A stretch of DNA of 63,693 bases, filler included. It is 4 parts of 4 records of this genome, joined end to end, with 100 filler letters (N's around TTAATTAATTAA, not from the genome) between each part and the next. Parts side by side here need not be neighbours in the genome. Positions count along the whole stretch, not along the records: positions 26,350 to 37,688 come from SRR22947725_7667; 3 more parts are not named here. One strand, written 5' to 3'. Position numbers and translations under genes: made by a program. The notes below the pieces were generated by a model, which was not told the DNA's origin, made no database searches, and was given only the letters and a program-made list of their open reading frames with translations. Shown piece by piece: positions 13,501-37,257 of the stretch; the stretch's first letter is position 1; each line of letters opens with the position of its first letter.

Positions 13501-13504
13501 ATAT

Positions 13505-18486: not shown

Positions 18487-18487
18487 A

Positions 18488-18997: not shown

Positions 18998-20905
18998 ATG
19001 CAAATTATGCAAATTAAATCTATATGGGTTCCAATCCTATTACTAGCCTTCTGCATTTCAGGCATAGCTCAGGAAAAACGGCCAAATATCCTTTGGCTAT
19101 CGGCTGAAGATATAAGTGCTCATTTTGGCTGCTATGGTGATAAGAACGCCAAAACCCCGACTATCGATAAACTCGCGAATGAAGGAGTTCTTTATAGTAA
19201 GGCATTTACTACAGCCGGAGTCTGTGCACCTTGTCGAAGTGGCATTATTACTGGGATGTATCAAACGACTTTGGGGACGCAGCATATGCGCTGCACCGCC
19301 ACTCTTCCTGACGAAGTCCGTCCATTTTCAAAGTACCTCAGAGAAGCCGGTTACTACTGCACCAATAATTCCAAACAAGATTATCAATTTAAAACACCTA
19401 AAGACTCCTGGGATGACAGTAGTAAAAAAGGTCACTGGCGCAATAGGCCGGATAAGAATCAACCCTTCTTTGCCATATTTAACTACACCGGATGCCACGA
19501 GTCCGGCATCTCCAAAACTGAAAAGTATGAAAAAGTCACTGAAGATTTATCCATTGAGAAAAGGCAAAATGCCGGACGCTTACAGATCCCTCCTTACTTC
19601 CCGGATACACCCACCGTTCGTGAAGACTGGAAACGAAACTATGAGTTGATTTCCGCCTACGATAAATGGTGTGCTGACCTTATTCAGCAATTAAAAGACG
19701 ACGGTCTCTATGAAAACACCATCATCATGGCCTGGTCAGATCATGGCGTCGGCTTGCCTCGTTCAAAGCGCTGGCTCTATAACTCAGGAACACACATTCC
19801 ACTAGTCGTCCGCATACCAGAAAAATATAAAAGCGTATCATCATTCAAACCAGGTTCCACAAATGACGAACTCATCAGTTCAATCGACCTTGGGCCAACA
19901 GTCCTAAACCTTGCTGGGGTTAAAGTTCCAAAACACATTCAGGGACGAGCTTTTCTTGGTGAAACTGTTAGCGCAAAAAGAAAGTATGTTCACGGCGCCA
20001 GAGACCGTATGGATGAGCGCTACGACATCATCCGTACTGTGCGCAACGAACGCTTTCTCTATATTCGCAACTACGAACCCTTAAAGACTTTCTACCAGTA
20101 CATGAACACTCCTGAAAAAGGCGCCACGATGAAGGAGCTCAGAACCTTACATGAAGCCGGGAAACTTCCTCCGGCAGCTGAGTACTACTTCAATCCCACT
20201 AAGCCTGTAGAAGAACTCTACGACTACATTTCCGATCCTCATAACATCAACAACCTCGCCGACAAATCACAATACAAAGAAGTACTTGCAGAGCTGCGCG
20301 CTGAGCATATCGACTGGGTTAAAAGGAGTAAAGACACTGGACTTATTCCGGAGCCTATCCTCAGGGAGAAAGCCAAAAAAGCTGGTAGTGAATATGAAGT
20401 ATTACGTCAAGATGGAGCCGATGAACTCACAGATCGCATCGCCACTGCAGCCATCAATGCCTCTGAAGGAATTAAAGCTTTAGGTGCACTTCTCAAAGCT
20501 GCTAAAGACAGTGACAGTGCGGTTCGCTACTGGGGTGCCACTGGCCTTGGAAATATTGGTCCTGAACTGGCCAACAACCCTCAAGTTATCAGTACATTCA
20601 ATACACTTCTAAAAGATCCGTCATCGACTGTCAGAACCGCTGCTGCTCGCGGTCTTTGCCGCCTGAACAAGCCAGAAAAAGCTCTTCCTGTCCTCATCAA
20701 TGAACTCACTAAAGGGGCTCAATGGGAAAGACTACATGCTGCCATCGCTCTCGATGAGATGGATGAAATGGCCAGGCCTGTAGCCGAGCAAATGAAAGAA
20801 GGCCTTAAGTACCAAAAAGGCTTTAACTCCGATGGCAAGTATAGAGTACGCGTGATAAACCGGGCGCTGAATGAACTCAACGGTACAAATAATACAGTAA
20901 ATTAA
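18998..20905 (+). CDS. S1 sulfatase with C-terminal HEAT repeats
   Basis: RPNILWLSAED, CAPCR, SDHG, RDRMDE; HEAT repeats DSDSAVRYWGATGLG, DPSSTVRTAAARGL. Confidence 0.92.
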   Translation: MQIMQIKSIWVPILLLAFCISGIAQEKRPNILWLSAEDISAHFGCYGDKNAKTPTIDKLANEGVLYSKAFTTAGVCAPCRSGIITGMYQTTLGTQHMRCTATLPDEVRPFSKYLREAGYYCTNNSKQDYQFKTPKDSWDDSSKKGHWRNRPDKNQPFFAIFNYTGCHESGISKTEKYEKVTEDLSIEKRQNAGRLQIPPYFPDTPTVREDWKRNYELISAYDKWCADLIQQLKDDGLYENTIIMAWSDHGVGLPRSKRWLYNSGTHIPLVVRIPEKYKSVSSFKPGSTNDELISSIDLGPTVLNLAGVKVPKHIQGRAFLGETVSAKRKYVHGARDRMDERYDIIRTVRNERFLYIRNYEPLKTFYQYMNTPEKGATMKELRTLHEAGKLPPAAEYYFNPTKPVEELYDYISDPHNINNLADKSQYKEVLAELRAEHIDWVKRSKDTGLIPEPILREKAKKAGSEYEVLRQDGADELTDRIATAAINASEGIKALGALLKAAKDSDSAVRYWGATGLGNIGPELANNPQVISTFNTLLKDPSSTVRTAAARGLCRLNKPEKALPVLINELTKGAQWERLHAAIALDEMDEMARPVAEQMKEGLKYQKGFNSDGKYRVRVINRALNELNGTNNTVN

Positions 20906-20920
20906 CCCAAGTCAAATCCA

Positions 20921-21010
20921 AGCCTCTGCCGGCTGCGGCAGCCGCCAGACAAGGTGAATAGCGACAGCTAGAGAAGGTAGCCTAGGCTAGGCACGGTCCC
21001 CGTGAGGCAT
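20921..21010 (+). repeat. Shorter relative of the 17422-17657 palindromic element
   Basis: Shares GCCGCC(A/G)GACAA(G/A)GTGA-hairpin-GAGA..GCCT core and a terminal AGGCAT; outer GCCTC/GAGGC IR. Confidence 0.6.
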
Positions 21011-21030
21011 ATTAAAGAACAGGGTCAAAC

Positions 21031-22089
21031 CTATCTCTCGAGGATCAGCATTGGTCCGCCACCAATCTTCAGTTCCTTAAAAAATTTCAGGGAACCATCC
21101 TTGTTGATGTGATGAATAAAAGTGGAAGCTTTGGATGAGCTATATAGGAACTTACCTGAGCGATCAACATTTATCTCTCTGGATCTATCGGCATCGTTGG
21201 CGTAAACTCCGACTCTTTTAAGAATCTTGCCTGTTTTAGGGTCCAGGCTAAAAACGGCGATGCTCCCCTGACTGCCGTCTTGATCACCTCTGTTGGACAT
21301 GAAAAGAAAACGACAATCCTTGGTCATTACAATTGTGGATGGGTTAGCAGACCAACCTTCTTTCGCTGATGAAAATTCCTGCCAGATTTTAACGCCTTTC
21401 TTGTCGTAGGTTAAAGAAGCAATTCCACCGCCTTTTTCATAGGTACAGTAAAGAACATTTTGCTGTGGGTGTTGAGCTAAGCTACGGAAATTTGCATAAC
21501 CTATTTTCTCTAAATTTGGGCCAGTGATAAAGGGTGGATCAAGAGGTGTTAACTTACCCGTTTTCTGATTGAACTTAAACTGATAAAAACGGTTATCCCA
21601 ATTGTGAGGGACAAAAACAAATTTGCCGTCATTTGAAAAGGTCACATCGTGTGGGTGGTCTGTAGTCGATACCAGATCAACTTGCTTACCAACAAATTGA
21701 TAATCCTTCATTGCCAATACCGATACTTTGTTTGCTCGGTAATTATACTGAACATAAAAACGGCCATCGGCAGAGAGCTTGCCGCTACCAGTCAATGAAC
21801 TCTTAGCAGAACCTTTAATCGCCAGCTTGCCTTTCTCTCCGACATAAAGAGTCACCAGTTCAGACTTGGAATAAGTATGAATATACCTTTCATTAGCTGA
21901 GAGGCTTAAACCACCCGCACCACTCTTCAATTTAAGCTTTTTAACCAGTTTTAACTGGCCATTCTTAGAGTTAATCGAGTATTGATCAATCGACTTCCCT
22001 TTTTTATTGGATAAGTACAAGTACTGCTCGGAATAAGCCGTCTGCACCATAAAAATAAGGATTATTAAGTACTGTATGAAACGCTTCAT
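21031..22089 (-). CDS. Secreted lactonase-family 7-bladed beta-propeller (Pgl-like)
   Basis: Signal peptide, HPHDV, FMSNRG, repeated propeller blades. Confidence 0.8.
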   Translation of the reverse strand: MKRFIQYLIILIFMVQTAYSEQYLYLSNKKGKSIDQYSINSKNGQLKLVKKLKLKSGAGGLSLSANERYIHTYSKSELVTLYVGEKGKLAIKGSAKSSLTGSGKLSADGRFYVQYNYRANKVSVLAMKDYQFVGKQVDLVSTTDHPHDVTFSNDGKFVFVPHNWDNRFYQFKFNQKTGKLTPLDPPFITGPNLEKIGYANFRSLAQHPQQNVLYCTYEKGGGIASLTYDKKGVKIWQEFSSAKEGWSANPSTIVMTKDCRFLFMSNRGDQDGSQGSIAVFSLDPKTGKILKRVGVYANDADRSREINVDRSGKFLYSSSKASTFIHHINKDGSLKFFKELKIGGGPMLILER

Positions 22090-22459
22090 GGATTTCTAAA
22101 ACCTTTTTTGATAAATTCTTATAGTCCCATACGCTCAAAGAGCTCAAATTCAGACAGCAACTATCAATTTAATTTTTATTAAACAGTCCATAATTTCATT
22201 GTTGAGATACTATTGGTGCCCAGAAATAATGATGTTTGTGAATACTACGAATAAATATTTTTGTACTAAGCCATAAATATATTTAACTTCTAGCATCCAC
22301 ATAACACGGTACCTGCCACTTTACTGTAAAAATATATCCAAACTTTTGAGACCTTTAAAAAGATGTAAATGCTTCATTATAAAGTTATTTTCAATTTCAC
22401 CATGGCGTATTTCGTAGCTTTATGTAAACTAAATCAATAAAAAAAGGCGCAAATTGCAT

Positions 22460-23296
22460 ATGTCACAAATAATACTTGGCTCTTTGATGGATCAAGCTTC
22501 AGAATTCATAGAAAAGGATTTCCCCCAATTTCTACAGAATATTATAGTTGCGCTGATTATTTTCATCGTAGGTAAGATTGTATCCATCTTACTCACAAAT
22601 ATTGCTGGCAAACTTATGCTCGCATCTAAAATGGAAGAAACAATTGTTAACTTTCTAAAAGCGCTCATCAACATAGGTTTGATGATAGTCGTTGCTTTAG
22701 CGTCACTAGAACAACTGGGCATAAAAACTACTTCTTTTGTAGCGATCCTTGCTGCAGCAGGTTTAGCCGTAGGTATGGCCTTAAAAGACACACTGGGGAA
22801 CTTCGCTTCAGGTGTTATGATTATCATGTTTAAGCCCTATAAAGTCGGCCACTTTGTAGAAATCGCAGGAACTGCTGGTGTAATTGAAGAAGTCAATCTG
22901 TTTAACACTGTTTTAAGAACTGGCGATAATATACAAATGTATTTACCAAACGGCTCTGTTACTGGCAGTAAAATCTGTAATTATTCAATTAAAGAAGAGC
23001 GCAGAATCGACCTCGTTATAGGGTGTGGCTATAATGATGACCTTAAAGCTGTTAAAAAAACTATACTTGAAGTCATCACGACTCATGAAAATGTCTTAAA
23101 AGACCCAGAACCAGTAGTAGCCGTTGCGGAATTAGGCGATAGTTCTGTTAATTTTGTAGTGCGCCCCTGGGTCAAAAACGCCGATTATTGGCCGGTTAGA
23201 TTTGAGCTAATCGAAAACATAAAAATTGCCTTTGATAAAGAAGGCTTCAGTATACCTTATCCACAGCAAGACGTTCATATGTACAATGAAAAATAA
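22460..23296 (+). CDS. mscS: Small-conductance mechanosensitive channel
   Basis: AAAGLAVGMALKDTLGNFASG, RRIDLVIG, DSSVNF, IPYPQQDV. Confidence 0.95.
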   Translation: MSQIILGSLMDQASEFIEKDFPQFLQNIIVALIIFIVGKIVSILLTNIAGKLMLASKMEETIVNFLKALINIGLMIVVALASLEQLGIKTTSFVAILAAAGLAVGMALKDTLGNFASGVMIIMFKPYKVGHFVEIAGTAGVIEEVNLFNTVLRTGDNIQMYLPNGSVTGSKICNYSIKEERRIDLVIGCGYNDDLKAVKKTILEVITTHENVLKDPEPVVAVAELGDSSVNFVVRPWVKNADYWPVRFELIENIKIAFDKEGFSIPYPQQDVHMYNEK

Positions 23297-23324
23297 TTTA
23301 TTTAATACAAACAATAAGGATATT

Positions 23325-24284
23325 ATGAAATATCTCTTTTTCTTTATTCTCTGTTTCTCACTCGTAGCAGATGAAGTCAAAATGAAGGATGGCTCTCTAC
23401 TTAAAGGAACCATCACAAAAATCCATAAAGGTAAGATCACCTTAAATACTGCATATGCAGGGACAATCAGTATCCTTCAAGATCATGTTGATTCTTACTC
23501 AACGGATAAAGAAGTAAATACAAAAAATGCTCAAGAACAAATTGTTCAGGAAGTTGTAACCCCTGAAAAAAACAAGGACATACTTACACTTTGGTCAGAT
23601 GGCCATGACCCAGATGTATTCCAAGAAAAATGGGTTCGTAAAGTTTGGTTCTCATTTAAAAGTTCAGAAGGCAACTCTGAAGAAAGAAATATTAATATCG
23701 GCTTCGACTTTTCTTACCTTAAAGAATTGAGCACATTAAAACTTTACGGTAGATGGTCAGATGAGGAAGATAATGATCGTCAAACGACCGATGAGTGGGT
23801 TTTGGGTGCTGACTATGAAAGAAGAATAGCAAATAGCAAAAGCTCTTGGTATGCTAGAGCAGAATATGAAAGAGATAAAATTGATGATATCAAATTAGCT
23901 CAAACCTATGCTGCTGGTTATGGTTACTACTTCATTGATGAAGGCCCAACAACGCTCAGGGGTCGAGTTGGTTTACAGTACCGTATGGATGATTACTATG
24001 ATGACGAAGATACAGACTCTGTAGGTCTTGACTTTGGCTTAAACTTTAAAACTGATATTACTGAAACAGTTAAGTGGTACACAGACATTACTTACACTCC
24101 TTCATTTGAGGACTACGCAAATGACTATAAAATCAAACACCAATCAGGTATCGCCATGCCTTTAGCTGCAGCGTGGGATATGTACTTGAAAGCCGGTGTC
24201 GAGCATGACTACAACAGCATGCCCTCTGAAGGTAATGAACACCTAGATACTGAATACTTCTTAAGATTGGAAGTCGTATTCTAG
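23325..24284 (+). CDS. DUF481 outer-membrane beta-barrel protein
   Basis: Signal peptide, ADEVKMKDGS.LKG N-domain, GNSE, GYGYYF, terminal aromatic residue. Confidence 0.8.
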   Translation: MKYLFFFILCFSLVADEVKMKDGSLLKGTITKIHKGKITLNTAYAGTISILQDHVDSYSTDKEVNTKNAQEQIVQEVVTPEKNKDILTLWSDGHDPDVFQEKWVRKVWFSFKSSEGNSEERNINIGFDFSYLKELSTLKLYGRWSDEEDNDRQTTDEWVLGADYERRIANSKSSWYARAEYERDKIDDIKLAQTYAAGYGYYFIDEGPTTLRGRVGLQYRMDDYYDDEDTDSVGLDFGLNFKTDITETVKWYTDITYTPSFEDYANDYKIKHQSGIAMPLAAAWDMYLKAGVEHDYNSMPSEGNEHLDTEYFLRLEVVF

Positions 24285-24392
24285 AAGTTTTAATGAACAA
24301 TAGGAGCTATGTACCTAGTCCTTTATTATATCAAAGAAAAAAGCCCATAATGAAGAGTCATTATCTCTATTGACTGCAAGATGATATTCTCT

Positions 24393-25394
24393 TCAAGGTT
24401 TTAACTTAAAATACTCATTCAGTAATTCCCTTGAGTCTTTTATAGATGGGTAGAAATAAATAAAGGGAGGGGGCTTTTCAGAATTCAAAATAGTCTTAAG
24501 AGTATCTTGGCTAGAGATAGTCTCATTAAATTCACCTACGTGCGGGCCATTGGATTTACCCAGAAGACCTAGCCAACGTTTATCAGTTTTCTCAATATAG
24601 GTATTGAAGTAAGCGTATAATTGCCATTCTGAAAATCCTAACCTGATTTTACTTTGCAACTCTTCTAGACCTATTACTTCTTTAGACGTTTCATGAGAGA
24701 ACGAAAGGTTGCGAAATCCACTTCCTCGATGAAAATATTGTTGGTGTTCACTTAGGAATAGATGCCATTTATTAACTATGGCCTCTTGCCAGGGAAGGTG
24801 ATGGATCTTTTCTACATACCTTTTTAGTCGTCTTAATGTTTTTTGACTCCAAATAACGCAAGCATCTATGGCCGCTAGTTCCGAAGTTTCTTGAAGGTCA
24901 AGTAGAGTGTTGGTTGACCAAGTCATTGCATAATGCCAATCAAGATAGTTTTGAGGTTCAGATGTAGGAGTATTTACAGCCTGGTACTCTTTACAGAGAA
25001 TCGGCTTTTCATGTCGTGATCGCATGTAGTAAATAGGACAATTAGCCCTAAAAAATAAATCTTCTTCAATATTTCTGATGGCAATTGTATCAACGTCTGT
25101 AAATAAGAAAAGTTCGCTTAGGTTATGTGTCTTCCTTAGTTGATCAACTGAAAGCTTAAGAAGTTGTTGGTAGATCCATTTATTACTACAAATTTTAGAG
25201 CTTAGGATCTTTGACTCGGGGATAAAGATAATGTGTGATGAGCTCTTAAAATCCTCTATAAGTTCTAAGATTGCAGAAGTCTCTGCATAGATATAAAAAC
25301 TTCTGTCGATTAGTGGATTGTATTTACGAGTAGACTCTATGTGAAACTTTAAACTTTCTCCATCATGTGGTCCGATAAGAGCAACTTGATCCAT
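24393..25394 (-). CDS. Glycosyltransferase-like protein (DUF6492-like)
   Basis: WIYQQLLKL, DVD (DxD) motif, FSEWQLY. Confidence 0.6.
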   Translation of the reverse strand: MDQVALIGPHDGESLKFHIESTRKYNPLIDRSFYIYAETSAILELIEDFKSSSHIIFIPESKILSSKICSNKWIYQQLLKLSVDQLRKTHNLSELFLFTDVDTIAIRNIEEDLFFRANCPIYYMRSRHEKPILCKEYQAVNTPTSEPQNYLDWHYAMTWSTNTLLDLQETSELAAIDACVIWSQKTLRRLKRYVEKIHHLPWQEAIVNKWHLFLSEHQQYFHRGSGFRNLSFSHETSKEVIGLEELQSKIRLGFSEWQLYAYFNTYIEKTDKRWLGLLGKSNGPHVGEFNETISSQDTLKTILNSEKPPPFIYFYPSIKDSRELLNEYFKLKP

Positions 25395-25969
25395 TATTTT
25401 TTAAACCTACCTGGTTTAATAACTTCAAGATCTATAATAGTGGCTTTGATGACATTATTGAAAGATTTAATAGCATGCTGTAAATCACCTTGGCTTATTT
25501 CTCCTTTTTGCCGCATTACGGCCCAATGATCATCTAAGCTGAAGGTAGTTTTGGTGATTTCGAAATCAACATCAAGAAATATTCCTAAAAGTGAGTTTGG
25601 TGCATTATTGTCTATCCAGTGCTGATTGAGCTTTTGACTAAATAAGCCAAAGCTTTCAGGAGTAACTGCTCTGACATGGGTGGGGTCATGTAGAAAAGTA
25701 TCGTGTCGTGGATGAGGAACTTCGATGAATATTTTGGCACCATTTTCGCAAACTCTATATATTTCTTGAACTATGTTCAGATAAGTTTCTGTATCTTTAC
25801 CCAAGTGCTCGAGTACATGTTGTAGAATTATCTCAGAAACACTGTTATTTTCCCATGGCCAAGGGAATATTTCAAGGTCTGTATTAAGTTCCGGCTCACC
25901 ATATTTATCGACATTTAAATAGCCTTTGCGGAAATCGCTGCCACAACCTAAATTTAGTTTTAGTCCCAT
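25394..25969 (-). CDS. Class I SAM-dependent methyltransferase
   Basis: KLNLGCG, QHVLEHL, EIYRVC, DPTHVR; RBS GGGAG before ATG 25969; stop overlaps next start. Confidence 0.85.
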   Translation of the reverse strand: MGLKLNLGCGSDFRKGYLNVDKYGEPELNTDLEIFPWPWENNSVSEIILQHVLEHLGKDTETYLNIVQEIYRVCENGAKIFIEVPHPRHDTFLHDPTHVRAVTPESFGLFSQKLNQHWIDNNAPNSLLGIFLDVDFEITKTTFSLDDHWAVMRQKGEISQGDLQHAIKSFNNVIKATIIDLEVIKPGRFKK

Positions 25970-26249
25970 ACTTACTCCCACATTTTAATTTATAGAATCG
26001 AAAGTTTTATGCCAGTTGCTTTCCTTTTAGTCTGTCTCCTGGAATTAGGAAAAAGCTTAGGCCTTTCTTGATAAACCTTTGAGTATTTCAATGACTAATG
26101 TGTGTAAAATATAATCCAATTTATCCCACGGTTCTCCCTGAACTTTTCGACTTTCCTCAGCCTGTGTTATTCTTCCCATAATGAGCCCGTCCCCATCAGA
26201 TTTAAACTTTTCGTCCTGAGAGCGCTGGCGTCCACGCCGGCATTAGACT

Positions 26250-26349
26250 NNNNNNNNNNNNNNNNNNNNNNNNNNNNNNNNNNNNNNNNNNNNTTAATTA
26301 ATTAANNNNNNNNNNNNNNNNNNNNNNNNNNNNNNNNNNNNNNNNNNNN
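26250..26349. other. Artificial contig linker (N44-TTAATTAATTAA-N44)
   Basis: Ns with a six-frame stop cassette; identical 100-nt linkers recur. Confidence 0.99.
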
Positions 26350-26440
26350 AAAAGACTAAGGAAATCAACGATTGATTTCAAAGTGTGAAAGTAATGTGTA
26401 AGTAGTTAATACAATTAAATCAATGACTTACAAAAGAAAA

Positions 26441-26456
26441 ACTACTCCCACTCAAT
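26441..26456. repeat. att core, distal copy of the guaA 3' end
   Basis: ACTACTCCCACTCAAT identical to 28580-28595. Confidence 0.9.
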
Positions 26457-26582
26457 AGTTTCAAGCTTGTAAGGCATTGTTTTATAACACTTTTAATTTA
26501 TGTTTCGAAGTAGTTTCTAAGTTTTTTCTATTTTTCTTAGATTTATTCTAATGCTGCAACTGTTGAAGAGCAACAGAAATGC

Positions 26583-26609
26583 TCAATTTGAGTTAGAAAG
26601 TTTATAAGT
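26583..26609. repeat. Inner 27-bp direct repeat, copy 1
   Basis: TCAATTTGAGTTAGAAAGTTTATAAGT, 1 mismatch to 28516-28542. Confidence 0.85.
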
Positions 26610-26851
26610 ATTTTTTTAAGTAAAATACCATGTATAACATTAGAAATTGCGTCTTTTACTTCTTTTTTTTACGACTAATTTTTTGTGTGATTACTATCGT
26701 CTTATAAGCAATTTCTTCCACTTCTTTACTTACAAAAACTGCTTTAACATCAAGTATTTCTGCTAATTTAGAAATGATATTAATAATATCATAATAATAA
26801 TTTTAGTTAAATAATTTTTAATATGTTTTTATAAATTTTCTTTATACCAAC

Positions 26852-27076
26852 TTATTGTTTAACAAGCGCACAAGAATACATCCTTTTATTCTTAGCAACT
26901 TTTTCACATTGTTTTTTACCTGCTCTATAACAATTCACAACCTTACCATCACTATTGTTAACCATACACCAAAGAGACTTAGAATTGGACACGTACTGAA
27001 TTTTAGAATTTGCTAGAGTAAAGGAAGTGATTGTTAAAAAAATACAGAATATTAAAAACTTGTAAAAATTTTTCAT
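26852..27076 (-). CDS. Small secreted cationic protein with 4 Cys in the mature part
   Basis: Signal MKNFYKFLIFCIFLTITSFTLA; WC-x11-C-x7-C-x11-C spacing reminiscent of DUF3551; RBS GAGG. Confidence 0.7.
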   Translation of the reverse strand: MKNFYKFLIFCIFLTITSFTLANSKIQYVSNSKSLWCMVNNSDGKVVNCYRAGKKQCEKVAKNKRMYSCALVKQ

Positions 27077-27121
27077 AATTTTAAACCTCATCATAATATG
27101 TTTAATAAAAGTTACTACAAT

Positions 27122-27460
27122 TTAACAAGAAGTCCCGCCTGCTCGTTTTCCAGTAGCAATGGCATTTTTGAAAGAAAGAATTGCAATTTCAAACGTATCC
27201 CATATACGAAAATTTGGTCTACTTTTCATAATACCAAGTGCATATCTCATATTTTCCATTCCTGTATCATATTGAGCTTTAACCTGATATACGTCTACTG
27301 TTTGGTTTTTGGGAACAGAATAATAACAATTAATTACCATTTTACTCATTTTGTTAGCTCTTTCTGCGGCTTTTAAATTTTTAGCTTCAATTGTATTTGC
27401 ATTTGCATTTACATTAAAAGCTAAAATAAATAAAATTAAAATACTTTTTAACTTTTTCAT
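27122..27460 (-). CDS. Small secreted protein (2 Cys)
   Basis: Signal peptide ending ANA, RBS AGGAG, C-terminal Cys. Confidence 0.75.
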   Translation of the reverse strand: MKKLKSILILFILAFNVNANANTIEAKNLKAAERANKMSKMVINCYYSVPKNQTVDVYQVKAQYDTGMENMRYALGIMKSRPNFRIWDTFEIAILSFKNAIATGKRAGGTSC

Positions 27461-27560
27461 ACTAAACTCCTAAAATATTAAATTTCAAAAATTACTTTGT
27501 TGTCAATATCTTGTTTTTTTAACTACATCATATTATTAGTAATAGAGTTCCTAACTTAAA

Positions 27561-27905
27561 TCACTGAAAACATCCTCCACCCATATGAGTAGCGAAAGTT
27601 GTTCTACCGCCATCATTAGTGTAAAGATCAAAAGCTCCACATGTTACAGGTCCTTTTGCTGTATCAAAAGTTGAAACGCATCTTTCTAAATAATATTTGT
27701 CGTATCCCCATTTAGTACCTAACCACCTAACTGAAGTCATTGATACTTGCATATAAGAGGCAATAGATTGTATATCATTTGCTCCATAGTTATTTACTTT
27801 TTGGCAATTAGTTTGATTATAAGTCACTTTTAAAGTTTTGGCATAGACCGGTGAAAATCCTAAAAAAATTAAAATCATTAAAGTAAATTGAATATATTTT
27901 CTCAT
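27561..27905 (-). CDS. Small secreted protein (4 Cys)
   Basis: Signal peptide ending VYA; four Cys in the mature part. Confidence 0.75.
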   Translation of the reverse strand: MRKYIQFTLMILIFLGFSPVYAKTLKVTYNQTNCQKVNNYGANDIQSIASYMQVSMTSVRWLGTKWGYDKYYLERCVSTFDTAKGPVTCGAFDLYTNDGGRTTFATHMGGGCFQ

Positions 27906-27943
27906 GTTAGACTTAACATAGATTTTATTTTATTATAAAGCAA

Positions 27944-28438
27944 TTAACATGCGTCAACAACCTTACCCTTATCAGTTATACAATGGCTCTTCCCCCATTT
28001 TAAACCATTATTAACCCAAAACATAAAAGAAAAATCTGTAGCATTCCCTCTTTTGATAAAGGTCATTTCTCTCGTATTTTCACAAGCTTTTTTACCTGTT
28101 GTACAATCAAACATGCTTTGACTATTTAAATAATATTGAACACTGAAATATCTGCCATTCAATAGCTTACTTATATTAAACGTACAGAGATTTTTATTTG
28201 TCGGAGGTGGTATATTATAATATTCAGAAAAATTATTTAATCCAGTAAAAGCTAGATCCAAAAAGTCTTTCCTAACGTAACCTTCACAAAGGTAATATTT
28301 AGTCTTACCCTTAATTTTAAATGGTGTAGCGGTTGGGTTAGGAACAAATGCATAACCTTCTTTTAACTCTGCAAACGCAGAAAAAGACAATAATGTAATT
28401 AAGATAAATTTATATAACACTGACAACAAATACTTCAT
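27944..28438 (-). CDS. Secreted protein (6 Cys)
   Basis: Signal peptide ending AFA; six Cys, the last being the C-terminal residue. Confidence 0.75.
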   Translation of the reverse strand: MKYLLSVLYKFILITLLSFSAFAELKEGYAFVPNPTATPFKIKGKTKYYLCEGYVRKDFLDLAFTGLNNFSEYYNIPPPTNKNLCTFNISKLLNGRYFSVQYYLNSQSMFDCTTGKKACENTREMTFIKRGNATDFSFMFWVNNGLKWGKSHCITDKGKVVDAC

Positions 28439-28515
28439 AAACTATAACTCATTATAAAAGATATAACATTTAAAAAACTTAAAAAATTTGTATTTAAAAA
28501 GCAAGAAAAATATAA

Positions 28516-28542
28516 TCAATTTGAGTTAGAAAGTTTCTAAGT
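28516..28542. repeat. Inner 27-bp direct repeat, copy 2 (contains palindrome TTAGAAA-G-TTTCTAA)
   Basis: TCAATTTGAGTTAGAAAGTTTCTAAGT. Confidence 0.85.
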
Positions 28543-28580
28543 TTTTTATCTAGTAATAACAATCACTTAATACCTAAACA

Positions 28581-30137
28581 CTACTCCCACTCAATTGTAC
28601 CAGGTGGTTTTGAAGTTATGTCATAAGTAACTCTATTAATACCATCCACATTATTAATAATTTTAGTCGCTGTTTCACTAAGAAAGTCATGATCAAAAGG
28701 ATAGTAATCAGCAGTCATACCATCAACAGAAGTAACTGCTCTTAAAGCACAGACATAGTCATAAGTCCTTGCATCTCCCATTACGCCAACAGTTTTTACA
28801 GGTAAAATAACTACAAATGCTTGCCAAATTTTTTTATATAATCCGTATTTTTTTATCTGATCAATATAAATCTGATCTGCGTTCCTGAGAATTTCTAATT
28901 TTTCTTTTGTTATTTCTCCTGGACATCTAATTGCCAAACCTGGCCCTGGAAAAGGATGTCTAGAAATAAACTTATCAGGTATTCCTAATTCTTGACCTAA
29001 AGCTCTGACTTCATCCTTAAATAATTCTTTTAGAGGTTCAATTAATTTCAAGTTCATTTTTTCTGGCAACCCACCTACATTATGATGGGATTTTATAGTT
29101 TCAGATGGAGCTCCAGAAAAACTTACACTTTCTATTACATCAGGATAAAGGGTACCCTGAGCTAAAAATTCAACATTACCAATTTCACTGGCGTGTTTTT
29201 CAAAAACATCAATAAATAATTTACCAATAATTTTTCTTTTTTGTTCAGGTTCACTGATCTCTTTTAAATGAGATAAAAATAAATCTTCTTCATGAGCAGC
29301 TTTAAGATTTAACTTAAAATTATTTTTATATAAATCTATAACCTCTTCACTTTCATTTTTTCTCATTAAACCATTGTTTACATAAACACAAGTTAGTTGA
29401 TCCCCTATTGCCTTATGAATTAAAATTGCTGTAACAGAACTATCTACACCTCCCGATAATGCGCAAATAACTTTTCTGTTACCAATTTCTTTTTTGATTT
29501 TTGATACTGAGTTTTTAAGATATGATTTCATATTCCAATCAAATGAAAGTTCTGCAATTTCTAAAAAATTTTTAAATAGAATCATTCCATTTACAGTATG
29601 AACAACCTCTGGATGAAATTGAACTCCATAAAAATGTTTTTGCTTATTCCCAATTATTGCAAACGGAGCATTTTCTGATTCACCATAAACTTCAAAATTT
29701 TCAGGAAGATTTGAGACATTGTCTCCGTGAGACATCCAAACCTCTTCGTCTAAATTGTCTTTAAACAAATTTTGTAAAAAATTAATCTCTTTATATTTAA
29801 ATTTTACAAATGATTTTCCAAACTCAGAAGTTCCATTTCCAGAACTAACTGTTCCACCCAAGATTTTCACCATGATTTGCTGACCGTAACATATTCCTAA
29901 AATTGGTATTCCCAGTTCAAAAATATTTGAAGGTGGCCTTGGAGCACCTTTATCTAACACACTTGCTGGGCCACCAGATAAAATAATTGCCTTTGGATTA
30001 AGTTTTTGCATTAATAAATTGTTAATTTTATTAAATGGATGTATTTCGCAATATACTTTTAATTCTCTTAATCTTCTGGCAATTAATTGTGTAACCTGAC
30101 TTCCAAAATCAATTATTATCACTAAATCATTTTTCAT
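28581..30137 (-). CDS. guaA: GMP synthase (glutamine-hydrolysing)
   Basis: [41 protein letters not shown]. Confidence 0.98.
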
Positions 30138-30140
30138 TAA

Positions 30141-31471
30141 TTATCTTTTCCTCTGAAACATAGATATATAAAAACCATCCGTTCTATGAATAGCCGGATT
30201 TAAAACTATACCATTTTTATCAGTTTCAAAAGGATATGGTGTTTGATTATTTGATAAAATCGTATCATTCCACATGTTAATCATATTAATTTCTGAAAAA
30301 TCTAAATTGTTTTCATTTTTAAACTTTTCTATTTGATTCAATCCTTCCTCTGGTAAAAAAGAACAAACCATATAGGCTAATTTTCCACCAGGTTTTACCA
30401 TCAAAGCCCCTTTAACTAAAAGTTCATATTGGATCTTTACTAGCTCATCTAATTTTTTTTTATCAAATTTAAATTTTGAATCTGGACTTCTTGACCATTT
30501 CCCAATTCCGCTACATGGAGCATCAATTAAAACTAGATCAAAAAAGTTTTCTAATCCTTTAACACTCCAGTTTTTGTTAACATGCCTTCTCTCAACGTTA
30601 TGAACGCCTGCTCTTTTAAGACGAATACTAGCAATTTCTAATCTCTTCTTATTTATATCAAAGGATACAATTCTTCCTTTATTCTCCATTAAGTCAGCTA
30701 GGATTAATGATTTACCACCAGCTCCAGAGCATATTTCTGCAATTTGTATTCCTGGTTTTGCGTCAGTTAGAATTGAAGCTACTTGAGATGCTTCACCTTG
30801 AATTTCTAAATAACCATTTTTATAAAGCTCATGACCTTCTATTGGATATCTTTTTGAAAACCTTATCCCTAATGGAGAATATTTAGAGTGCTGATGATCA
30901 ATCCCAAGATCTTTTAATTTCGTGCTTAATTTATCTCTTGATATATTTTTTAACCTATTGACCCTAACATCAAAAAAAGCTTCTTTGTTAATTGATAATG
31001 CAACATCTTGCCAATCATCAGGAAAACTTCCTTTAATGCTATTTAATAAGAATTCTTGAAGTTCATATTTAATATGATCTTCCATATTAGGATGATAAAA
31101 ATTTCTGTAAAGTTTTTCATCTAAAAAATCTAAACTTATTTGCTTGAAATCTTTATGATCTTTCGACATCAAAATAAGTAAACTTTTAATTTTAATAATA
31201 TTATTTTTATAGTAATCATTTAAAAAAAATAGTTCTAAGATTAACTGATTAGTATTTAAAGGTCTTAATCCCAGATTTTTAATATGCCACTTAATTTTAT
31301 ATTGATGTCTTATTATATTCCAAAATATATTAGAAATAAATTTTCTATCTTTAGAACCAATAAATTTTTTTGATCTAAAAAAGCTATTAACAATTTTACT
31401 AGCTGTTTTTAAAGAATTATCTAATGTATTTAAAAGTTCTAAAACACTGTATATTCTATCTTTATCTCTCA

Positions 31472-31472
<1 letters not shown>
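30141..31472 (-). CDS. rsmB: RsmB/NOP family m5C RNA methyltransferase
   Basis: EIQGEASQ, CSGAGGKS, DAPCSG, YMVCS, TDGFY; exact substrate uncertain. Confidence 0.85.
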
Positions 31473-32941
<1,469 letters not shown>

Positions 32942-33012
32942 TTAGATATTATAAATATTTTAACACCCTATATAAACTTTTGAAAATAAATTACAAAGAT
33001 AAAATATTGCAA

Positions 33013-33711
33013 TTACTCTATATTGAAACCAGTGGCGATAACATACCCCTCTACAGATTCTTTTCTACTAGCATCTGGCTTAATATGATTAACCCTTGAA
33101 AAATGTTTCTTCATCAAAGACAAGGAATCTATTTCAGTTCCTCCTTTGAAACATTTAGCCAAAAACACTCCATTTTTATTTAAGTTTTCTATAGCAAAAT
33201 CTAGGGCTATTTCTAATAAATATGTAGTCCTAATATGATCTGTCTGTCTATGACCTGTAGTATTTGCAGCCATATCAGATAAAACAATATCAGGCTTGCA
33301 ACCCAGAATTTTTATTAATTCATCTCCTATTTTTGCATCAGTAATATCCCCTAATATAGATATACAGCCAGCAATATCATCAGTTGGCAGTAAATCCACA
33401 CCAACTACTTTTTCTCTTCCAACAAGAGAATTTACTTTTTGAGAAGCAATTTGAAGCCAACCACCTGGTGCACACCCTAAATCTACAACAGAACGCCCAG
33501 GAATTAAAAACTTATACTTTTCGTCAATTTGCAGCAGTTTAAATGCTGCTCTAGATTTGTAACCTCTTTTTTGTGTTTCTAGAACATAAGGATCATTAAG
33601 TTGTCGTCCAATCCACCTAGTACTGGATGACTTTCTTTTCTTATCTTTTTTTATTTTTTGTGATAATCCCCTAGCACTTCCAAATGAACCAGGATTGTTT
33701 TGATCAGTCAT
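33013..33711 (-). CDS. rlmE: 23S rRNA Um2552 methyltransferase
   Basis: RQLNDPYV, GYKSRAAFKL, DLGCAPGGW, SDMA, KPDASRKES. Confidence 0.95.
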   Translation of the reverse strand: MTDQNNPGSFGSARGLSQKIKKDKKRKSSSTRWIGRQLNDPYVLETQKRGYKSRAAFKLLQIDEKYKFLIPGRSVVDLGCAPGGWLQIASQKVNSLVGREKVVGVDLLPTDDIAGCISILGDITDAKIGDELIKILGCKPDIVLSDMAANTTGHRQTDHIRTTYLLEIALDFAIENLNKNGVFLAKCFKGGTEIDSLSLMKKHFSRVNHIKPDASRKESVEGYVIATGFNIE

Positions 33712-34075
33712 TATTAATATTATTTGTTGATTTAAAAAAACAGCTTGTAGCACCTGTATGACAAGCAGGTCCAGTTTGTTCGATCAATGCGAGCATGGTA
33801 TCGTTATCACAATCTAATCTAAGTTCAAATAGCTTCTGAAAATACCCACTAGATTCTCCCTTTTGCCAGAGCTTTTGTCTTGATCTTGAAAAGTAATACA
33901 TATTATTTGTATTAATTGTTTTTTTTACAGCTTCTTCATTCATCCAAGCCATCATTAATACAGTACCAGTATTTACACATTGTGCAATGACAGGAACTAA
34001 TCCATCTTTATTAAATTTAATGTCTGAAGGATAAAAATTTTCAGAACTTAAAATTGTATAATCATTTTTGACCAT
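33704..34075 (-). CDS. hisI: Phosphoribosyl-AMP cyclohydrolase
   Basis: GLVPVIAQ, FSRSRQKLWQKGESSG, DCDND, ACHTG..SCF. Confidence 0.96.
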   Translation of the reverse strand: MVKNDYTILSSENFYPSDIKFNKDGLVPVIAQCVNTGTVLMMAWMNEEAVKKTINTNNMYYFSRSRQKLWQKGESSGYFQKLFELRLDCDNDTMLALIEQTGPACHTGATSCFFKSTNNINND

Positions 34076-34079
34076 TGTA

Positions 34080-37000
34080 TTATCTTCTCTTAAAGTTTTT
34101 AAAGAAATTTGAACAATCATTGCTTATACCCATCATAGATGGAACTATGACAAGTACAAGAAAAGCAGTAACGCCTAGGCCAAAAACTATTGTTGCAGCC
34201 ATTGGAATGAGAAACTGCGCTTGGAGTGATGTTTCAAACATAAGGGCTGATAATCCACCAATTGTTGTAAGAGATGTTAATAAAACTGGTCTAAACCTAT
34301 CAACAACTCCATTAATTATAGCTTCATTTATTATTTTATCATCATTATATTCTCTATCATTTTGATTACGTAAGTCTTCTAGCCTTCTTTCAATAGTTGA
34401 AACTAATATGATTGAATTATTTACTACTATTCCTGCTAAGGCCAAAAGGGCGAACATGGATAATATAGACATTGTTAAACCCAACAAATAATGACCAAGA
34501 ACAGCACCAATAAAAGCAAACGGTATCATAATCATGATAGAAAATGGCCTTGACCATGATTTAAATACCCAAGCTAATATAAAATAGATAAGTAATAAAC
34601 CAATTATTGAACCCGTTCCCATATCGGCAAATGTTTCTTTTTGTTCCAAATCTTTACCATCAAATCTATAAGATACATTATATTTTTTAGCGATTTCAGG
34701 CAGTCCATTTCCCATTAAAAAATTTCTTGCTTGGGCAGTATTCATCATTTCAGTAAATAAGTCTCCAGATATAGTAACTTCACGAAAACCATCTGTTCTA
34801 TTTATTGATGCAAAAGGAAGTGTTTCATTAATTATTGCTATTTCTTGAAGCCTGAAGCTTTCTCCAAGTGGAGAAATTATCCTCAACTCATTTATCATAT
34901 CTGTATTTTGTTCATCTTCGGATAATTTTAATCTAACTTTTACCTCTTCATCCCCCTTTGGAAATTCTGATATAATAGTCCCATTAATTGCTGATCTTAC
35001 CTGTTCGCCAATATTAGTTATAGAAAATCCTAAAGACTGTCCTTTTTCATTTAAACTTAGACTTTTTTCTTGAATGCCAAACTCTAGATTATCACTGAGT
35101 GATGATACACCAGGGATATTTCGGGCAATATTTATTAACTCATTAGATGCTAATTTAAGAGTTTTCAAGTCATCCCCTTGAAACCTTACATCAAGGTCTC
35201 TTCCAGGAGGCCCTCCACTTGGAGCTCTAATAGTAAGGTTATCTAAACCTGGTTCGTTTATGATATTTTTTTTCCATTCCTTTATAAAATCATTTGTTCT
35301 TATTTCTCTTTTATCAGCTGTTTTTAATTCAACAACCATAGATCCAAGCAAATCACTTCCAGAAGAGCTGGGCGATGAATCATTAGAAAAAGAGGTCCTT
35401 GATCCAATTGTAGACATGTTAAATTGAATAAGATTGGGAGATAATGCAAATTGGCTGGATGTTTTATCCAATGCTATCTTAATATTATCTAACATTTTGT
35501 TTGTTTGGGATTTAGTAGTACCAGAATGCATTTTAAAATTAGCTATTACTATATCAGCCTCTGGAGTAGGAAAAAAGCTAAATAAAACTCTACCTCCTGA
35601 CATCATTCCTATTGAAATTATAAACATTCCGATTGCTGTCATGAAGGTGATATATCTATAGTTAAAAGTGTAGATAACAAATTTTCTAAATATACCCTCT
35701 TGAAAAGAGTTAAATTTTTTATCAAACCATAACCTAAACCTACTTTCTTCTTGATTTGATCTATCATAATGAGCTAGATGAGCGGGCAAAACCAAAAAAC
35801 ATTCAATTAAACTTGCCACTAATACTGCACATACCACCCAAGGAATAGCTGCAATAATTTCTCCTATTACACCTTTAATCATAAATAGAGGTATAAAAGC
35901 TGCAACTGTGGTGAGCATTGCTGATATAACAGGCATTGACATTCTGGTTGCAGCCACAACTGGTGCTTTACTGGAATCCAGCCTCCTTTTAGTTTTCAAA
36001 TATGACGAGTGTTCTCCAACTACTATTGCGTCATCTACAACTATACCTAATGCCATTATTAAACCAAATAATGAAATCATATTGATAGACTGGCCTGATG
36101 CTAACATAACACCAAAGGTCGCTAAAAAAGCAATCGGAATACCAAAAGCAACCCAGATTGCAGTGTTACGTGACAAAAACAAAAATAATACTGCAAGAAC
36201 AATACAAAGACCACTAAGACCATTCTTGACTAACAATGATATTCTTTCTTGTATTAAATTAGCAGCAGTATTGTAAGTCTGGATTTCAATCTGATTACCT
36301 ATTAATTCTTGTGAATTAGAAATAACTTTATTTACATTTTCTGAAACTTTGAGGGCATCACTTGTTTTGCTTCTTCTAACCCATATCTCTACAGCTGGTT
36401 TCCCATCAACAAACTTTAAAACACTACTTTTTTCAATACTTGATTTTATATTTGCTATATCACCAAGTAAAATTCTTGCACCAGAAACTGAGTTTTTTAG
36501 CTCTAATTTTTTGAATGCTTCTACTAATCTTTTTTCACCTACTGTCCTTACTCTCAATGAGCCATCAGCAAAACTACCTCCGGAGACATCTTGTGTTTCA
36601 GATTTTATAAGGTTTGAGATTTCATTTAATGAAAGTTTTAGTTTAGCCACCTCTAATTGAGAAATTTCAATCAGAATTTCTTCTTGAGGCAAACCTAATA
36701 TGTCAACTTTATCTACACCAGAGTTTAGAAGTTCTTCTTTTAGTATTTTAGATTTTATCCTTAACTCTGATAAAGGTAAATCACTTGTTAAAACAATTCT
36801 AGTTACAGTGTCAAAAAATTCACCTACAACTATTTTAGGTTTATTCGCCTTTTCTGGAAAATTAATTCTTGATACAGCTGTTTCAACATCCGTTCTTCCT
36901 TTTTGCATATCATGCCCATAATTAAACTCAACTTGAGTACGTGCAATACCCTCAACAGATTTAGATGTAACTTTTTTAACGCCAGATATTGGTCGCAATT

Positions 37001-37226
37001 CCGGTTCAAGTAATTGAACTATATTTTTATCTATTTCTTCTGCAGTTGCTCCTGGCCAATCTAACGAAACGGCTACAATCTCAACGTCAAAGTCAGGAAA
37101 AAATTGTTTGTTTAATCTACCTATTGATAGCAAACCAACAATAATCATTAATATCATAATGATATTTGCTGCTGTCCTATGCTGTACAAAAAATTTTAAG
37201 AAACCAGACTCATTAAATTTTAACAA
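34080..37226 (-). CDS. RND efflux permease (AcrB/AcrD/AcrF family)
   Basis: 1048 aa, GIVVDDAIVVGE, GIVVNNSI, RFRPVLLTSLTT. Confidence 0.95.
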   Translation of the reverse strand: MLKFNESGFLKFFVQHRTAANIIMILMIIVGLLSIGRLNKQFFPDFDVEIVAVSLDWPGATAEEIDKNIVQLLEPELRPISGVKKVTSKSVEGIARTQVEFNYGHDMQKGRTDVETAVSRINFPEKANKPKIVVGEFFDTVTRIVLTSDLPLSELRIKSKILKEELLNSGVDKVDILGLPQEEILIEISQLEVAKLKLSLNEISNLIKSETQDVSGGSFADGSLRVRTVGEKRLVEAFKKLELKNSVSGARILLGDIANIKSSIEKSSVLKFVDGKPAVEIWVRRSKTSDALKVSENVNKVISNSQELIGNQIEIQTYNTAANLIQERISLLVKNGLSGLCIVLAVLFLFLSRNTAIWVAFGIPIAFLATFGVMLASGQSINMISLFGLIMALGIVVDDAIVVGEHSSYLKTKRRLDSSKAPVVAATRMSMPVISAMLTTVAAFIPLFMIKGVIGEIIAAIPWVVCAVLVASLIECFLVLPAHLAHYDRSNQEESRFRLWFDKKFNSFQEGIFRKFVIYTFNYRYITFMTAIGMFIISIGMMSGGRVLFSFFPTPEADIVIANFKMHSGTTKSQTNKMLDNIKIALDKTSSQFALSPNLIQFNMSTIGSRTSFSNDSSPSSSGSDLLGSMVVELKTADKREIRTNDFIKEWKKNIINEPGLDNLTIRAPSGGPPGRDLDVRFQGDDLKTLKLASNELINIARNIPGVSSLSDNLEFGIQEKSLSLNEKGQSLGFSITNIGEQVRSAINGTIISEFPKGDEEVKVRLKLSEDEQNTDMINELRIISPLGESFRLQEIAIINETLPFASINRTDGFREVTISGDLFTEMMNTAQARNFLMGNGLPEIAKKYNVSYRFDGKDLEQKETFADMGTGSIIGLLLIYFILAWVFKSWSRPFSIMIMIPFAFIGAVLGHYLLGLTMSILSMFALLALAGIVVNNSIILVSTIERRLEDLRNQNDREYNDDKIINEAIINGVVDRFRPVLLTSLTTIGGLSALMFETSLQAQFLIPMAATIVFGLGVTAFLVLVIVPSMMGISNDCSNFFKNFKRR

Positions 37227-37257
37227 AATTATATCCTAAATTATTTAAAGCATGCAT

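Follow-up and report, generated by a model that had tools for sequence, protein, structure and literature searches.

The GIsul2 integrase moves CR2-sul2, a unit with no integrase of its own, between att copies at guaA, as set out in the available part of the GIsul2 study (PMC9376610). CIMEs and the accretion model are described in a second paper, here also drawn on in part (PMC5704250). Excised forms and tandem junctions of tycheposons are reported in sub-populations in the accessible portion of the corresponding preprint (bioRxiv 10.1101/2020.12.28.424599). In this work, we compare these systems with a locus behind guaA in a window of 63,693 bases (the whole stretch of DNA that was analysed). 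We read 26441-28598 as an att-flanked, integrase-less, CIME-like cargo module (the cassette) that was site-specifically placed, is guaA-proximal in an array and is movable only by an integrase from elsewhere, and we give this reading a probability of about 0.62.

The window consists of four contigs glued together and represents at least two organisms. An integrase 'elsewhere in the genome' is therefore ill-defined here. One of the three artificial linkers in the window lies at 26251-26350, which leaves just 90 nt between the distal core copy and the end of its 11.3-kb contig, and the sequence left of 26251 is an unrelated contig. GuaA is closest to records titled SAR116 (76-80% at the amino acid level), with Pelagibacterales records at 53-64%, and a SAR11 origin was rejected on these values. 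Judging from GuaA similarity, the host of the guaA contig is a SAR116-like marine bacterium. The features of the locus are as follows.

26251-26350, no strand: artificial, non-biological contig joiner (N50-TTAATTAATTAA-N50), across which GC goes from about 0.36 to about 0.27
26351-26440, no strand: opening 90 nt (P' arm) of another integrative element, 'L121-type', truncated by the contig end
26441-26459, no strand: distal att core, from the repeat search and shuffles; attR of the cassette and attL of the next element
26457-26623, no strand: distal (P) arm, from repeat analysis and in-register alignment with the P arms of 10 other elements
26852-27094, minus strand: cargo c80; predicted signal peptide, four Cys in the mature part (translation read by eye)
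27122-27460, minus strand: cargo c112; predicted signal peptide, two Cys in the mature part (translation read by eye)
27561-27905, minus strand: cargo c114; predicted signal peptide, four Cys in the mature part
27944-28438, minus strand: cargo c164; predicted signal peptide, six Cys in the mature part
28516-28579, no strand: guaA-side (P') arm, with repeat families D2 and D4, in register with relatives' P' arms; putative function
28580-28598, no strand: proximal att core (attL), 16 nt exact and 19 nt with one mismatch, containing GAGTGGGA and the guaA TAG stop
28581-30137, minus strand: guaA (GMP synthase), the insertion target; 518-aa ORF with Pfam GATase (2e-43) and GMP_synt_C (7.8e-42)

The window holds two exact copies of the 16-mer ACTACTCCCACTCAAT, at 26441-26456 and 28580-28595 (a spacing of 2139 nt), with a chance expectation of 0.03 and at least two matches in 0 of 100 shuffles. 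No third copy was found anywhere in the window when up to two mismatches were allowed. Extended to 19 nt (26441-26459 and 28580-28598), the copies are identical at 18 of 19 bases. The last guaA codons and the stop lie inside the proximal core; read on the minus strand, this copy gives G-T-I-E-W-E-stop and the distal copy E-T-I-E-W-E-stop. An earlier sequence-only reading had reported both the repeat of the guaA end and a distal copy still encoding TIEWE-stop, and these observations are confirmed. Its proposal that DNA was inserted at the guaA 3' end, between copies of a core containing GAGTGGGA, is supported by the direct repeats on either side of the insert and by the empty and alternative sites of relatives described below.

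Both ends of the cassette carry arms built like those of the guaA-integrase elements in relatives. The P' arm has a box (AACAATCACTTAA, 28558-28570), a palindromic candidate arm-type site (TTAGAAAGTTTCTAAG, 28526-28541) and a D2 copy (28516-28556), and the same order is seen in relatives, where the core is followed by about 9 nt, a CATTG box, some 14 nt more and tandem 10-11-nt repeats. In the P arm, a box (CTTGTAAGGCATTGTT, 26466-26481), tandem candidate arm-type repeats (GTTTCGAAGTAGTTTCTAAG, 26502-26521) and a D2' copy (26583-26623) follow an order shared with 10 other elements, namely two tandem repeats, an A-rich spacer, an AAtCAATg box, 13-15 nt and the core. This arm is 72-85% identical to P arms at seven metagenome loci. 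The cassette ends also share a 41-nt direct repeat (88% identity) and a three-copy motif. We infer that the arm repeats take part in recombination. Arms like these (TTAGAAA-type) accompany at least five unrelated cargos, with an integrase never in view.

Between the cores lie four ORFs of 80, 112, 114 and 164 aa, predicted to encode four small secreted, disulfide-type proteins; no other reading frame above 48 aa is present in 26351-26900. The largest product, c164, has 32 remote homologues at E ≤ 1e-3 (best 1.2e-12), and its six Cys are invariant or near-invariant across 28 sequences. Its alignment-based model reached a pLDDT of 84.5 (single-sequence fold, 41) and had no Foldseek match at E ≤ 0.001; a word-index search with c164 also returned no match. 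Two labels for this protein were rejected: cystatin-like, for which the VIA rows (Z 4.3-5.5) fall inside the noise range with no clear fold match, and LprI, which is attached to only 2 of 28 homologues. For c114, there is a single homologue cluster (P0001, four members, 90% identity) and no Pfam family above cut-off. The cargo ORFs gave no tblastn match in any fetched locus, and their atlas scores (0.76-0.79) are under the useful level. Rfam returned sub-threshold eukaryotic families only, and the promoter/terminator scan was uninformative (22 sites, with 14.7 expected). Neither Pfam, tblastn nor an HMM built from five guaA-type integrases found an integrase between the cores. No integrase fragment was detectable within the block, nor was any remnant of an integrase or transfer gene. 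Because 26457-28579 has no integrase gene, the cassette is non-autonomous.

In close relatives, the same site is empty or differently filled, with breakpoints at the core. The guaA gene of the same-species genome G053 (G053:C53) is 99% identical to that of the window at the nucleotide level, and the two are 99% identical across 9081 nt of flank; homology ends at window position 28580, and different cargo follows from the core onward. The G053 insert is a remnant: it has lost its distal core and retains a P' arm, a single ORF and part of a 54-aa ORF. Over the 6938 nt that lead up to the core, the metagenome contig L181 has 98.1% identity to the window, and it then continues at 90.8% identity to window 26459-26351; since homology resumes there, L181 is without exactly the 2.1-kb inter-core block, although it differs by 9% in the neighbour arm, so that the pair is not isogenic and may have separate histories. 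We also surveyed 20 family loci having both guaA and a conserved neighbour gene (177 aa). Three sites were empty (gaps of 45-83 nt), 14 held integrase-less inserts (225-1807 nt) and three held integrase islands (4.5-9.6 kb) with the integrase directly after guaA. The distal core is kept in 7 of the 14 integrase-less inserts and in all three islands. Empty sites end in GAGTAAATAAAAA; at occupied sites, this native end is often retained by the distal core, as predicted by integration within the core. The check on relatives proposed earlier thus yielded both empty sites and alternative cargo, the opposite of the uniform occupancy that had been named as counter-evidence.

The cassette has a neighbour. 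Over 110 nt, window 26350-26459 shares 91.8% identity with the stretch that immediately follows the guaA core in L121 (G055:C7); a 380-aa tyrosine integrase begins there about 165-260 nt past the core. Because the distal 90 nt match the arm of this integrase-bearing element, we place the block first, next to guaA, in a tandem array whose second element is cut off after 90 nt by the contig end, and the lone mini-island of the sequence-only reading is not borne out. Its description of small ORFs with no integrase stands for the 2.1 kb between the cores; as the G055 relative of the second element encodes an integrase, 'integrase-less' is valid for the 2.1 kb only. Tandem units are also present in G001, G055 and G052. 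The neighbour elements measure 6-7 kb, are without conjugation genes, and carry an integrase, DUF6626 and a second small recombinase. A 24-mer from 26351-26440 was found in 83 metagenome stretches. L121-type integrases are 87-100% identical over aligned stretches (94-98% for full-length copies), whereas the guaA genes preceding them are only 47-99% identical; integrases this similar behind such divergent genes indicate that this element type crosses wide host boundaries.

Which integrase could act on the cassette? Relatives carry five related integrase lineages directly behind guaA, each with its own arm repeats. The L010 and L121 integrases have PF00589 only, whereas a P4-type control integrase from G001 has PF00589, Arm-DNA-bind_3 and Phage_int_M. 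The P4-like enzyme suggested earlier therefore does not fit, as the guaA integrases of relatives are without the latter two domains. The G001 P4-type integrase was itself set aside as a guaA integrase, being on another contig with no guaA-like core there. None of the seven PF00589 matches in G053 is of the guaA type; its large integrases (C11, C45, C91) have no guaA core nearby and weak similarity at most. A search for a guaA-targeting integrase elsewhere in the genome had been proposed as a check; none matching the cassette arms was found in the window. The neighbour is no obvious helper either, because its arm repeats (ACTTACACA) differ from those of the cassette (TTAGAAAGT). Searches with the arms themselves gave one match at two mismatches for a cassette-arm 21-mer in 66 family genomes (two control matches) and none for a P-arm 23-mer in JGI metagenomes. 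In viral contigs (IMG/VR), the cassette-arm 21-mer and a neighbour-arm 24-mer both had 0 matches, and among the four ORFs there are no replication or packaging-hijack genes of the kind that mark phage satellites.

The distal core lies so close to the contig end, in a mixed bin, that a faulty assembly has to be weighed: guaA might have been joined to foreign DNA via the shared core, or the distal copy mis-joined. Several relatives' contigs also stop at the core. Among the short Logan contigs of the runs, none bridges either core by at least 31 nt on both sides (the nearest pieces reach 25 nt on the guaA side, X1 record 5, and 14 nt, X6 record 26), and there was no usable excised-circle or empty-site joint. 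Joints reported inside guaA have short sides and were treated as noise. Depth is about 2-6 in the block and about 17-50 in guaA, and such depth cannot rank the parts. Against an artefact, block-interior pieces with 0-3 differences come from contigs of four runs of four studies, including a 221-nt piece (28384-28604) with zero differences to the window; a 16-nt repeat is below the usual assembly word size; and both junctions show the arm architecture expected for real att sites. X1 may itself be the sample of origin. We consider an artefact very improbable. A more serious challenge, though still an unlikely one, is that the block is the dead remnant of a once-autonomous guaA element, its integrase deleted, now fixed and eroding, so that the intact cores reflect recency and not function. 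Decay is indeed frequent at this site: besides the G053 remnant, G014 has a 225-nt arm stump and L114 only 67 N-terminal integrase residues. Among 48 L121-type copies with enough downstream sequence, the integrase is full in 11, partial in 11 and absent in 26, with differing breakpoints, and no cognate integrase for the cassette was found anywhere searched. Yet the cores are perfect (16/16), both arms keep the family architecture, the block shows no trace of an integrase and it is precisely absent from a 98%-identical relative (L181). Moreover, at least five cargos within homologous TTAGAAA-type arms, all without an integrase, would be hard to obtain through independent deletions.

The adjoining L121-type arm raises a further alternative, that the block and the L121-type unit move as one island with an internal att copy and an integrase in cis past the contig end. 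The tandem units of G001, G055 and G052 agree with this, as does the attL/attLR/attR layout of GIsul2, a precedent in the part of that paper available (PMC9376610). Among the 67 L121-type arms that have upstream sequence, the left neighbour, where it is not guaA, is most often a TTAGAAA-type P arm (11 copies), but this count comes from a search seeded on the L121 arm and so shows no neighbour preference. In addition, the two units occur apart (G035 has a TTAGAAA-type unit without an L121-type neighbour, and L181 an L121-type unit without the block), and a full integrase is found in only 11/48 L121-type copies. We judge a composite island improbable, and somewhat more so than a dead remnant.

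We therefore favour the cargo module moved by an integrase from elsewhere. The cassette would belong to a group of small integrative elements that target the last guaA codons in SAR116-like and other marine bacteria. Its placement would have involved tyrosine-integrase site-specific recombination within the 16-19-bp core ATTGAGTGGGAGTAGT, with integration giving guaA a new TAG stop and duplicating the core. The distal core directly adjoins an arm belonging to another, widespread type of element, some copies of which encode an integrase. As both recombination arms are kept, the cassette could still be excised or moved, alone or with its neighbour, if an integrase were supplied from outside; such trans-mobilisation is plausible. 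A broader reading is speculative and, in our view, rather doubtful: TTAGAAA-arm units might together be a family of gene cassettes free of integrases, which co-resident broad-host-range elements would move in trans with their guaA integrases and whose arms would be conserved for that purpose. The guaA 3' end would then be an integron-like capture platform, common to marine Alpha- and Gammaproteobacteria, where small envelope-protein genes are stacked and swapped.

The locus offers a concrete, testable route by which the small genomes of the SAR116 group could exchange a few genes at once. Depending on the genome, a single hot spot behind guaA is empty or holds integrase-less mini-units or 4.5-10-kb integrase elements. 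If the integrase-less units no longer move, they document rapid element decay; if they still do, they are a marine counterpart of GIsul2/CR2-sul2, a system relevant to the spread of resistance. There is also a warning for annotation, as glued MAG contigs can make an island seem closed and integrase-free where the contig merely ends.

Tycheposons target tRNA genes. Those of Prochlorococcus resemble the cassette in being small elements of the tyrosine-recombinase type from which streamlined marine bacteria build flexible islands, and the available portion of the text mentions neither guaA nor SAR116 (bioRxiv 10.1101/2020.12.28.424599). Integron cassettes, which have an attC site beside an IntI/attI platform, appear to be an analogy only: the ends here copy 16-19 nt of the guaA end and have lambda-like arms, a different design. 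CIMEs come closer. The cassette retains attL and attR and has no integration or transfer genes, as in the CIMEs of the ICESt1/ICESt3 family, and like them it follows the 3' end of a housekeeping gene, with another element next to it in tandem (PMC5704250, definition taken from the part available). Among the differences, no remnant of ICE or IME descent was found in it, and its neighbours are short elements without conjugation genes. None of the TTAGAAA-type arms found here is accompanied by an integrase, a pattern that points to a family of cassettes more than to isolated decay.

The nearest parallel is GIsul2/CR2-sul2 of Gammaproteobacteria, which shares the last guaA codons as target, the core GAGTGGGA and att copies of about 19 bp, as well as an att-flanked integrase-less unit adjoining an integrase-bearing island (PMC9376610, available part). 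For CR2-sul2, excision and integration by the GIsul2 integrase are demonstrated there (PMC9376610), whereas the mobility of the marine cassette is something we infer. The cargo also differs, comprising small secreted proteins and not resistance genes, with no ISCR element. Close matches to the marine integrases are lacking among 72,556 plasmid records, where the L010 type has no match and the L121 type matches unrelated integrases at ≤28% identity; PLSDB includes GIsul2-bearing plasmids. The cassette is a known kind of element, like CIMEs and GIsul2/CR2-sul2, in a host group that is new.

The window mixes organisms. Three artificial joiners of the form N50-TTAATTAATTAA-N50 interrupt it (at 26251-26350, 37690-37790 and 57450-57550, with TTAATTAATTAA cores at 26294, 37733 and 57496), and GC content steps at every joint of the four contigs. 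The contig carrying guaA (26351 to ~37688) is 99% identical across 9081 nt (28600-37680) to G053:C53, from a genome of the same species, and its GuaA best matches records titled SAR116 cluster (76-80% amino acid identity; Pelagibacterales records give 53-64%). The stretch 37800-57400 is 99% identical to G001:C1, from a genome that belongs to another family and has a guaA of only 70% identity, and the contigs at 6251-26250 and 57560-63693 match neither G001 nor G053. With such a mixed bin, searching for a cognate integrase 'elsewhere in the genome', as the sequence-only reading had proposed, has no clear meaning for the window.

What that reading had observed at the guaA end (a repeat, small ORFs and an integrase-free interval) is real. 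The core ACTACTCCCACTCAAT has two exact copies in the window, starting at 26441 and 28580, and no extra copy there with up to two mismatches allowed; its chance expectation is 0.03, and two or more matches arose in 0 of 100 shuffles. Widening the comparison to 19 nt brings in one mismatch (18 of 19 agree). The right copy contains the last codons and TAG stop of guaA, and the left copy, on the guaA strand, reads ETIEWE-stop.

28581..30137, minus strand: guaA, 518 aa, with GATase and GMP_synt_C domains

Between the cores lie four ORFs, all on the minus strand (164, 114, 112 and 80 aa, here c164, c114, c112 and c80), and about 400 nt without any frame longer than 48 aa. Pfam, tblastn and an HMM built on five guaA-type integrases found no integrase in this interval. 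Upstream of guaA, on its strand, are an rsmB-like methyltransferase (30141..31472) and an IMP-dehydrogenase-like ORF (31472..32926, named from its translation by eye).

The block between the cores varies in presence. L181, a metagenome locus, matches the window at 98.1% identity across 6938 nt, core included, and past the core it continues at 90.8% identity with window positions 26459-26351, the 19-nt core falling in both alignments. Relative to L181, the window's insertion runs precisely from core to core, which supplies the empty-site comparison that had been proposed, albeit from a non-isogenic pair, since the neighbour's arm differs by 9%. G053 is 98-99% identical to the window from 28580 rightwards and has nothing alike to the left. 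Its 1334-nt insert holds an arm of the L010 type (another guaA element, with its own integrase), one 195-aa membrane ORF and a piece of a 54-aa ORF, and its lack of a distal core marks it as a decayed remnant.

Insertions recur at the guaA 3' end, a hot spot that has integrases of its own. Our family set comprised 66 species genomes around one matched SAR116 genome (G053 included), and guaA-downstream DNA was taken from 43 of the 49 with a guaA 3' end, the six omitted being contig-end cuts or partial. In twenty loci the sequence includes guaA as well as a conserved neighbour gene of 177 aa: three are empty sites (gap 45-83 nt), 14 carry integrase-less inserts (225-1807 nt) and three carry integrase islands (4492-9613 nt) whose tyrosine integrase immediately follows guaA and shares its strand. 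The proposed comparison of flanks in relatives returned both empty sites and varied inserts. Across all 43 loci, seven have an integrase so placed. These guaA-site integrases form five related lineages (380-441 aa) and contain PF00589 alone. A control integrase from G001 has P4-type arm-binding and central domains as well; the guaA-site integrases lack them, and the P4-like type assumed earlier is not supported. Empty sites end in GAGTAAATAAAAA. At occupied sites the guaA end is often GAGTAGT plus element sequence and the native end is kept at the distal core, as recombination inside the core predicts. A recognizable distal core is kept in 3/3 integrase islands and 7/14 integrase-less inserts.

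Two further observations concern this site. Assemblies tend to break there, with a guaA-end core ~80-3000 nt from a contig end in G056:C1, G063:C5, G064:C37, G042:C43 and G032:C22. Separately, the L010-type integrases of L120 (G058:C5) and L010 (G002) are 90% identical, and the guaA 3' regions of these loci are ~73-79% identical to the window's, which points to movement of the element between clades.

The att regions of all element types are laid out alike. Towards the distal (P) end come two tandem 10-11-nt repeats, an A-rich spacer, an AAtCAATg box, 13-15 nt and the core; the guaA (P') end mirrors this order. The repeat word varies with lineage (AGTTACAAAG, ACTTACACA, AGTTTCCAAG or GTTAGAAAGT). 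In the block, both arms are in register with this design, and a 41-nt direct repeat (88% identity) lies near both ends.

26457-26623, no strand assigned: P arm of the block, with GTTTCGAAGTAGTTTCTAAG and CTTGTAAGGCATTGTT
28516-28579, no strand assigned: P' arm of the block, with TTAGAAAGTTTCTAAG and AACAATCACTTAA

By their likeness to lambda-type att sites, the arm words are candidate integrase arm sites.

Beyond the distal core a second element begins. Because 26251-26350 is an artificial joiner, only 90 nt separate this core from the contig end; these 90 nt and the 19-nt core (26350-26459) match, at 91.8% identity, the DNA right behind the core at the guaA end of locus L121 in G055. In that locus the gene for a 380-aa integrase starts some 165-260 nt past the guaA stop codon, and the window's contig ends just before the matching point. 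The L121-type element is 6-7 kb long and also encodes DUF6626 and a second, 201-aa tyrosine recombinase. A 24-mer from the neighbour's arm retrieved 83 metagenome stretches; the analysis covered 79 of these loci, with 80 copies. Where an integrase is present, its identity to the G055 enzyme is 87-100% over aligned stretches (full-length copies: 94-98%). The preceding guaA (C-terminal 239 aa) is 47-99% identical to the window's, so the L121-type element has a very broad host range. The guaA genes ahead of it (L121; metagenome L144-L222) are of alpha- and gamma-proteobacterial style. In 48 copies the sequence extends 1400 nt or more downstream, and among these the integrase is full in 11, partial in 11 and missing in 26, with varying breakpoints; the window's second unit may therefore have an integrase or not.

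Tandem arrangements recur. In G055, a ~470-nt mini-unit follows the 6.3-kb element (L121, oriented, about 6330-6830) and encodes a ~50-aa peptide of largely Cys-rich repeats. L216 (patterns at 675 and 6772) and L149 show guaA, an L121-type element, a core and the same arm again, either a tandem duplicate or co-assembled integrated and circular forms (which would create a P-core-P' joint). Behind guaA in G001 stand three to four tandem copies of the guaA-end core (L004, G001:C2:258000-273000, about 7947-12007). They delimit an arms-only unit of ~120 nt, one of 1 kb that encodes a 236-aa membrane protein, and one of 3 kb with TPR/sulfotransferase-like ORFs, whose start is repeated past the last core. 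The array holds no integrase, and no guaA-type integrase was found in the genome (98% complete). Its first arm is ~90% identical to that of an integrase element in G026, a genome of another family. The G001 guaA appears as two ORFs (436 and 66 aa; L004 11993-13556), which suggests a frameshift or sequencing error near the 3' end.

In their translations, the block's four cargo proteins all begin with a signal-peptide-like segment and have even numbers of cysteines in the mature part (c164 six, c114 four, c112 two, c80 four). For c164 there are 32 remote homologues (best E 1.2e-12, 33% identity); over 28 aligned sequences five cysteines are invariant or at least 90% conserved, the sixth (C119) also reaching at least 90%. 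Its alignment-based model is of high confidence (pLDDT 84.5) but has no clear solved relative, and cystatin-like matches (Z 4.3-5.5) were within noise. One homologue cluster, 90% identical, matches c114. The cargo genes are accordingly real, and their products secreted or periplasmic. Other mini-units, too, have envelope-related cargo.

We read the block as an att-flanked non-autonomous module, movable only by a foreign integrase, with a probability of about 60%. Perfect cores, two intact arms and the precise absence from L181 count for present mobility. Window-like arms (72-85% identity) were also seen in G035, in G010 and at 11 metagenome loci. The cargo that such arms flank is of at least five unrelated kinds: the block's own four ORFs, a Cys-rich ORF of 57 aa, another ORF of 240 aa, one that is Wzz-like, and methyltransferase-like ORFs. 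No integrase is in view beside any of them. There is precedent for such movement: PMC9376610 reports that CR2-sul2, a unit without an integrase, is excised and integrated between att copies at guaA by the integrase of GIsul2, and PMC5704250 describes CIMEs and an accretion model.

Against present mobility count the commonness of decay at the guaA site and the neighbour's arm words, which are unlike the block's. Searches of the window, G053, the 66 family genomes, JGI metagenomes and IMG/VR turned up no integrase with matching arms, and no circle or empty-site joint was seen in the runs' short contigs, none of which spans a core with at least 31 nt on both sides. Weighing these points against the intact cores and arms, we consider a dead remnant unlikely, if the most serious rival. 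The claim of an integrase-less island mobilized in trans is only partly supported: no integrase lies in the block, but the island is open-ended at the contig break. That the block is the inner part of one composite element is more doubtful still, and an assembly artefact is very improbable.

The accessible parts of the literature on SAR116 islands and integrases and on guaA islands and integrases contain no description of this SAR116 or marine guaA element family, and the tycheposon preprint (bioRxiv 10.1101/2020.12.28.424599) mentions neither guaA nor SAR116. In mechanism and layout, the block resembles CIMEs and the GIsul2/CR2-sul2 pair; in proposed ecological role, it resembles tycheposons. 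It is a known kind of element, and what is new is this member and its host group.
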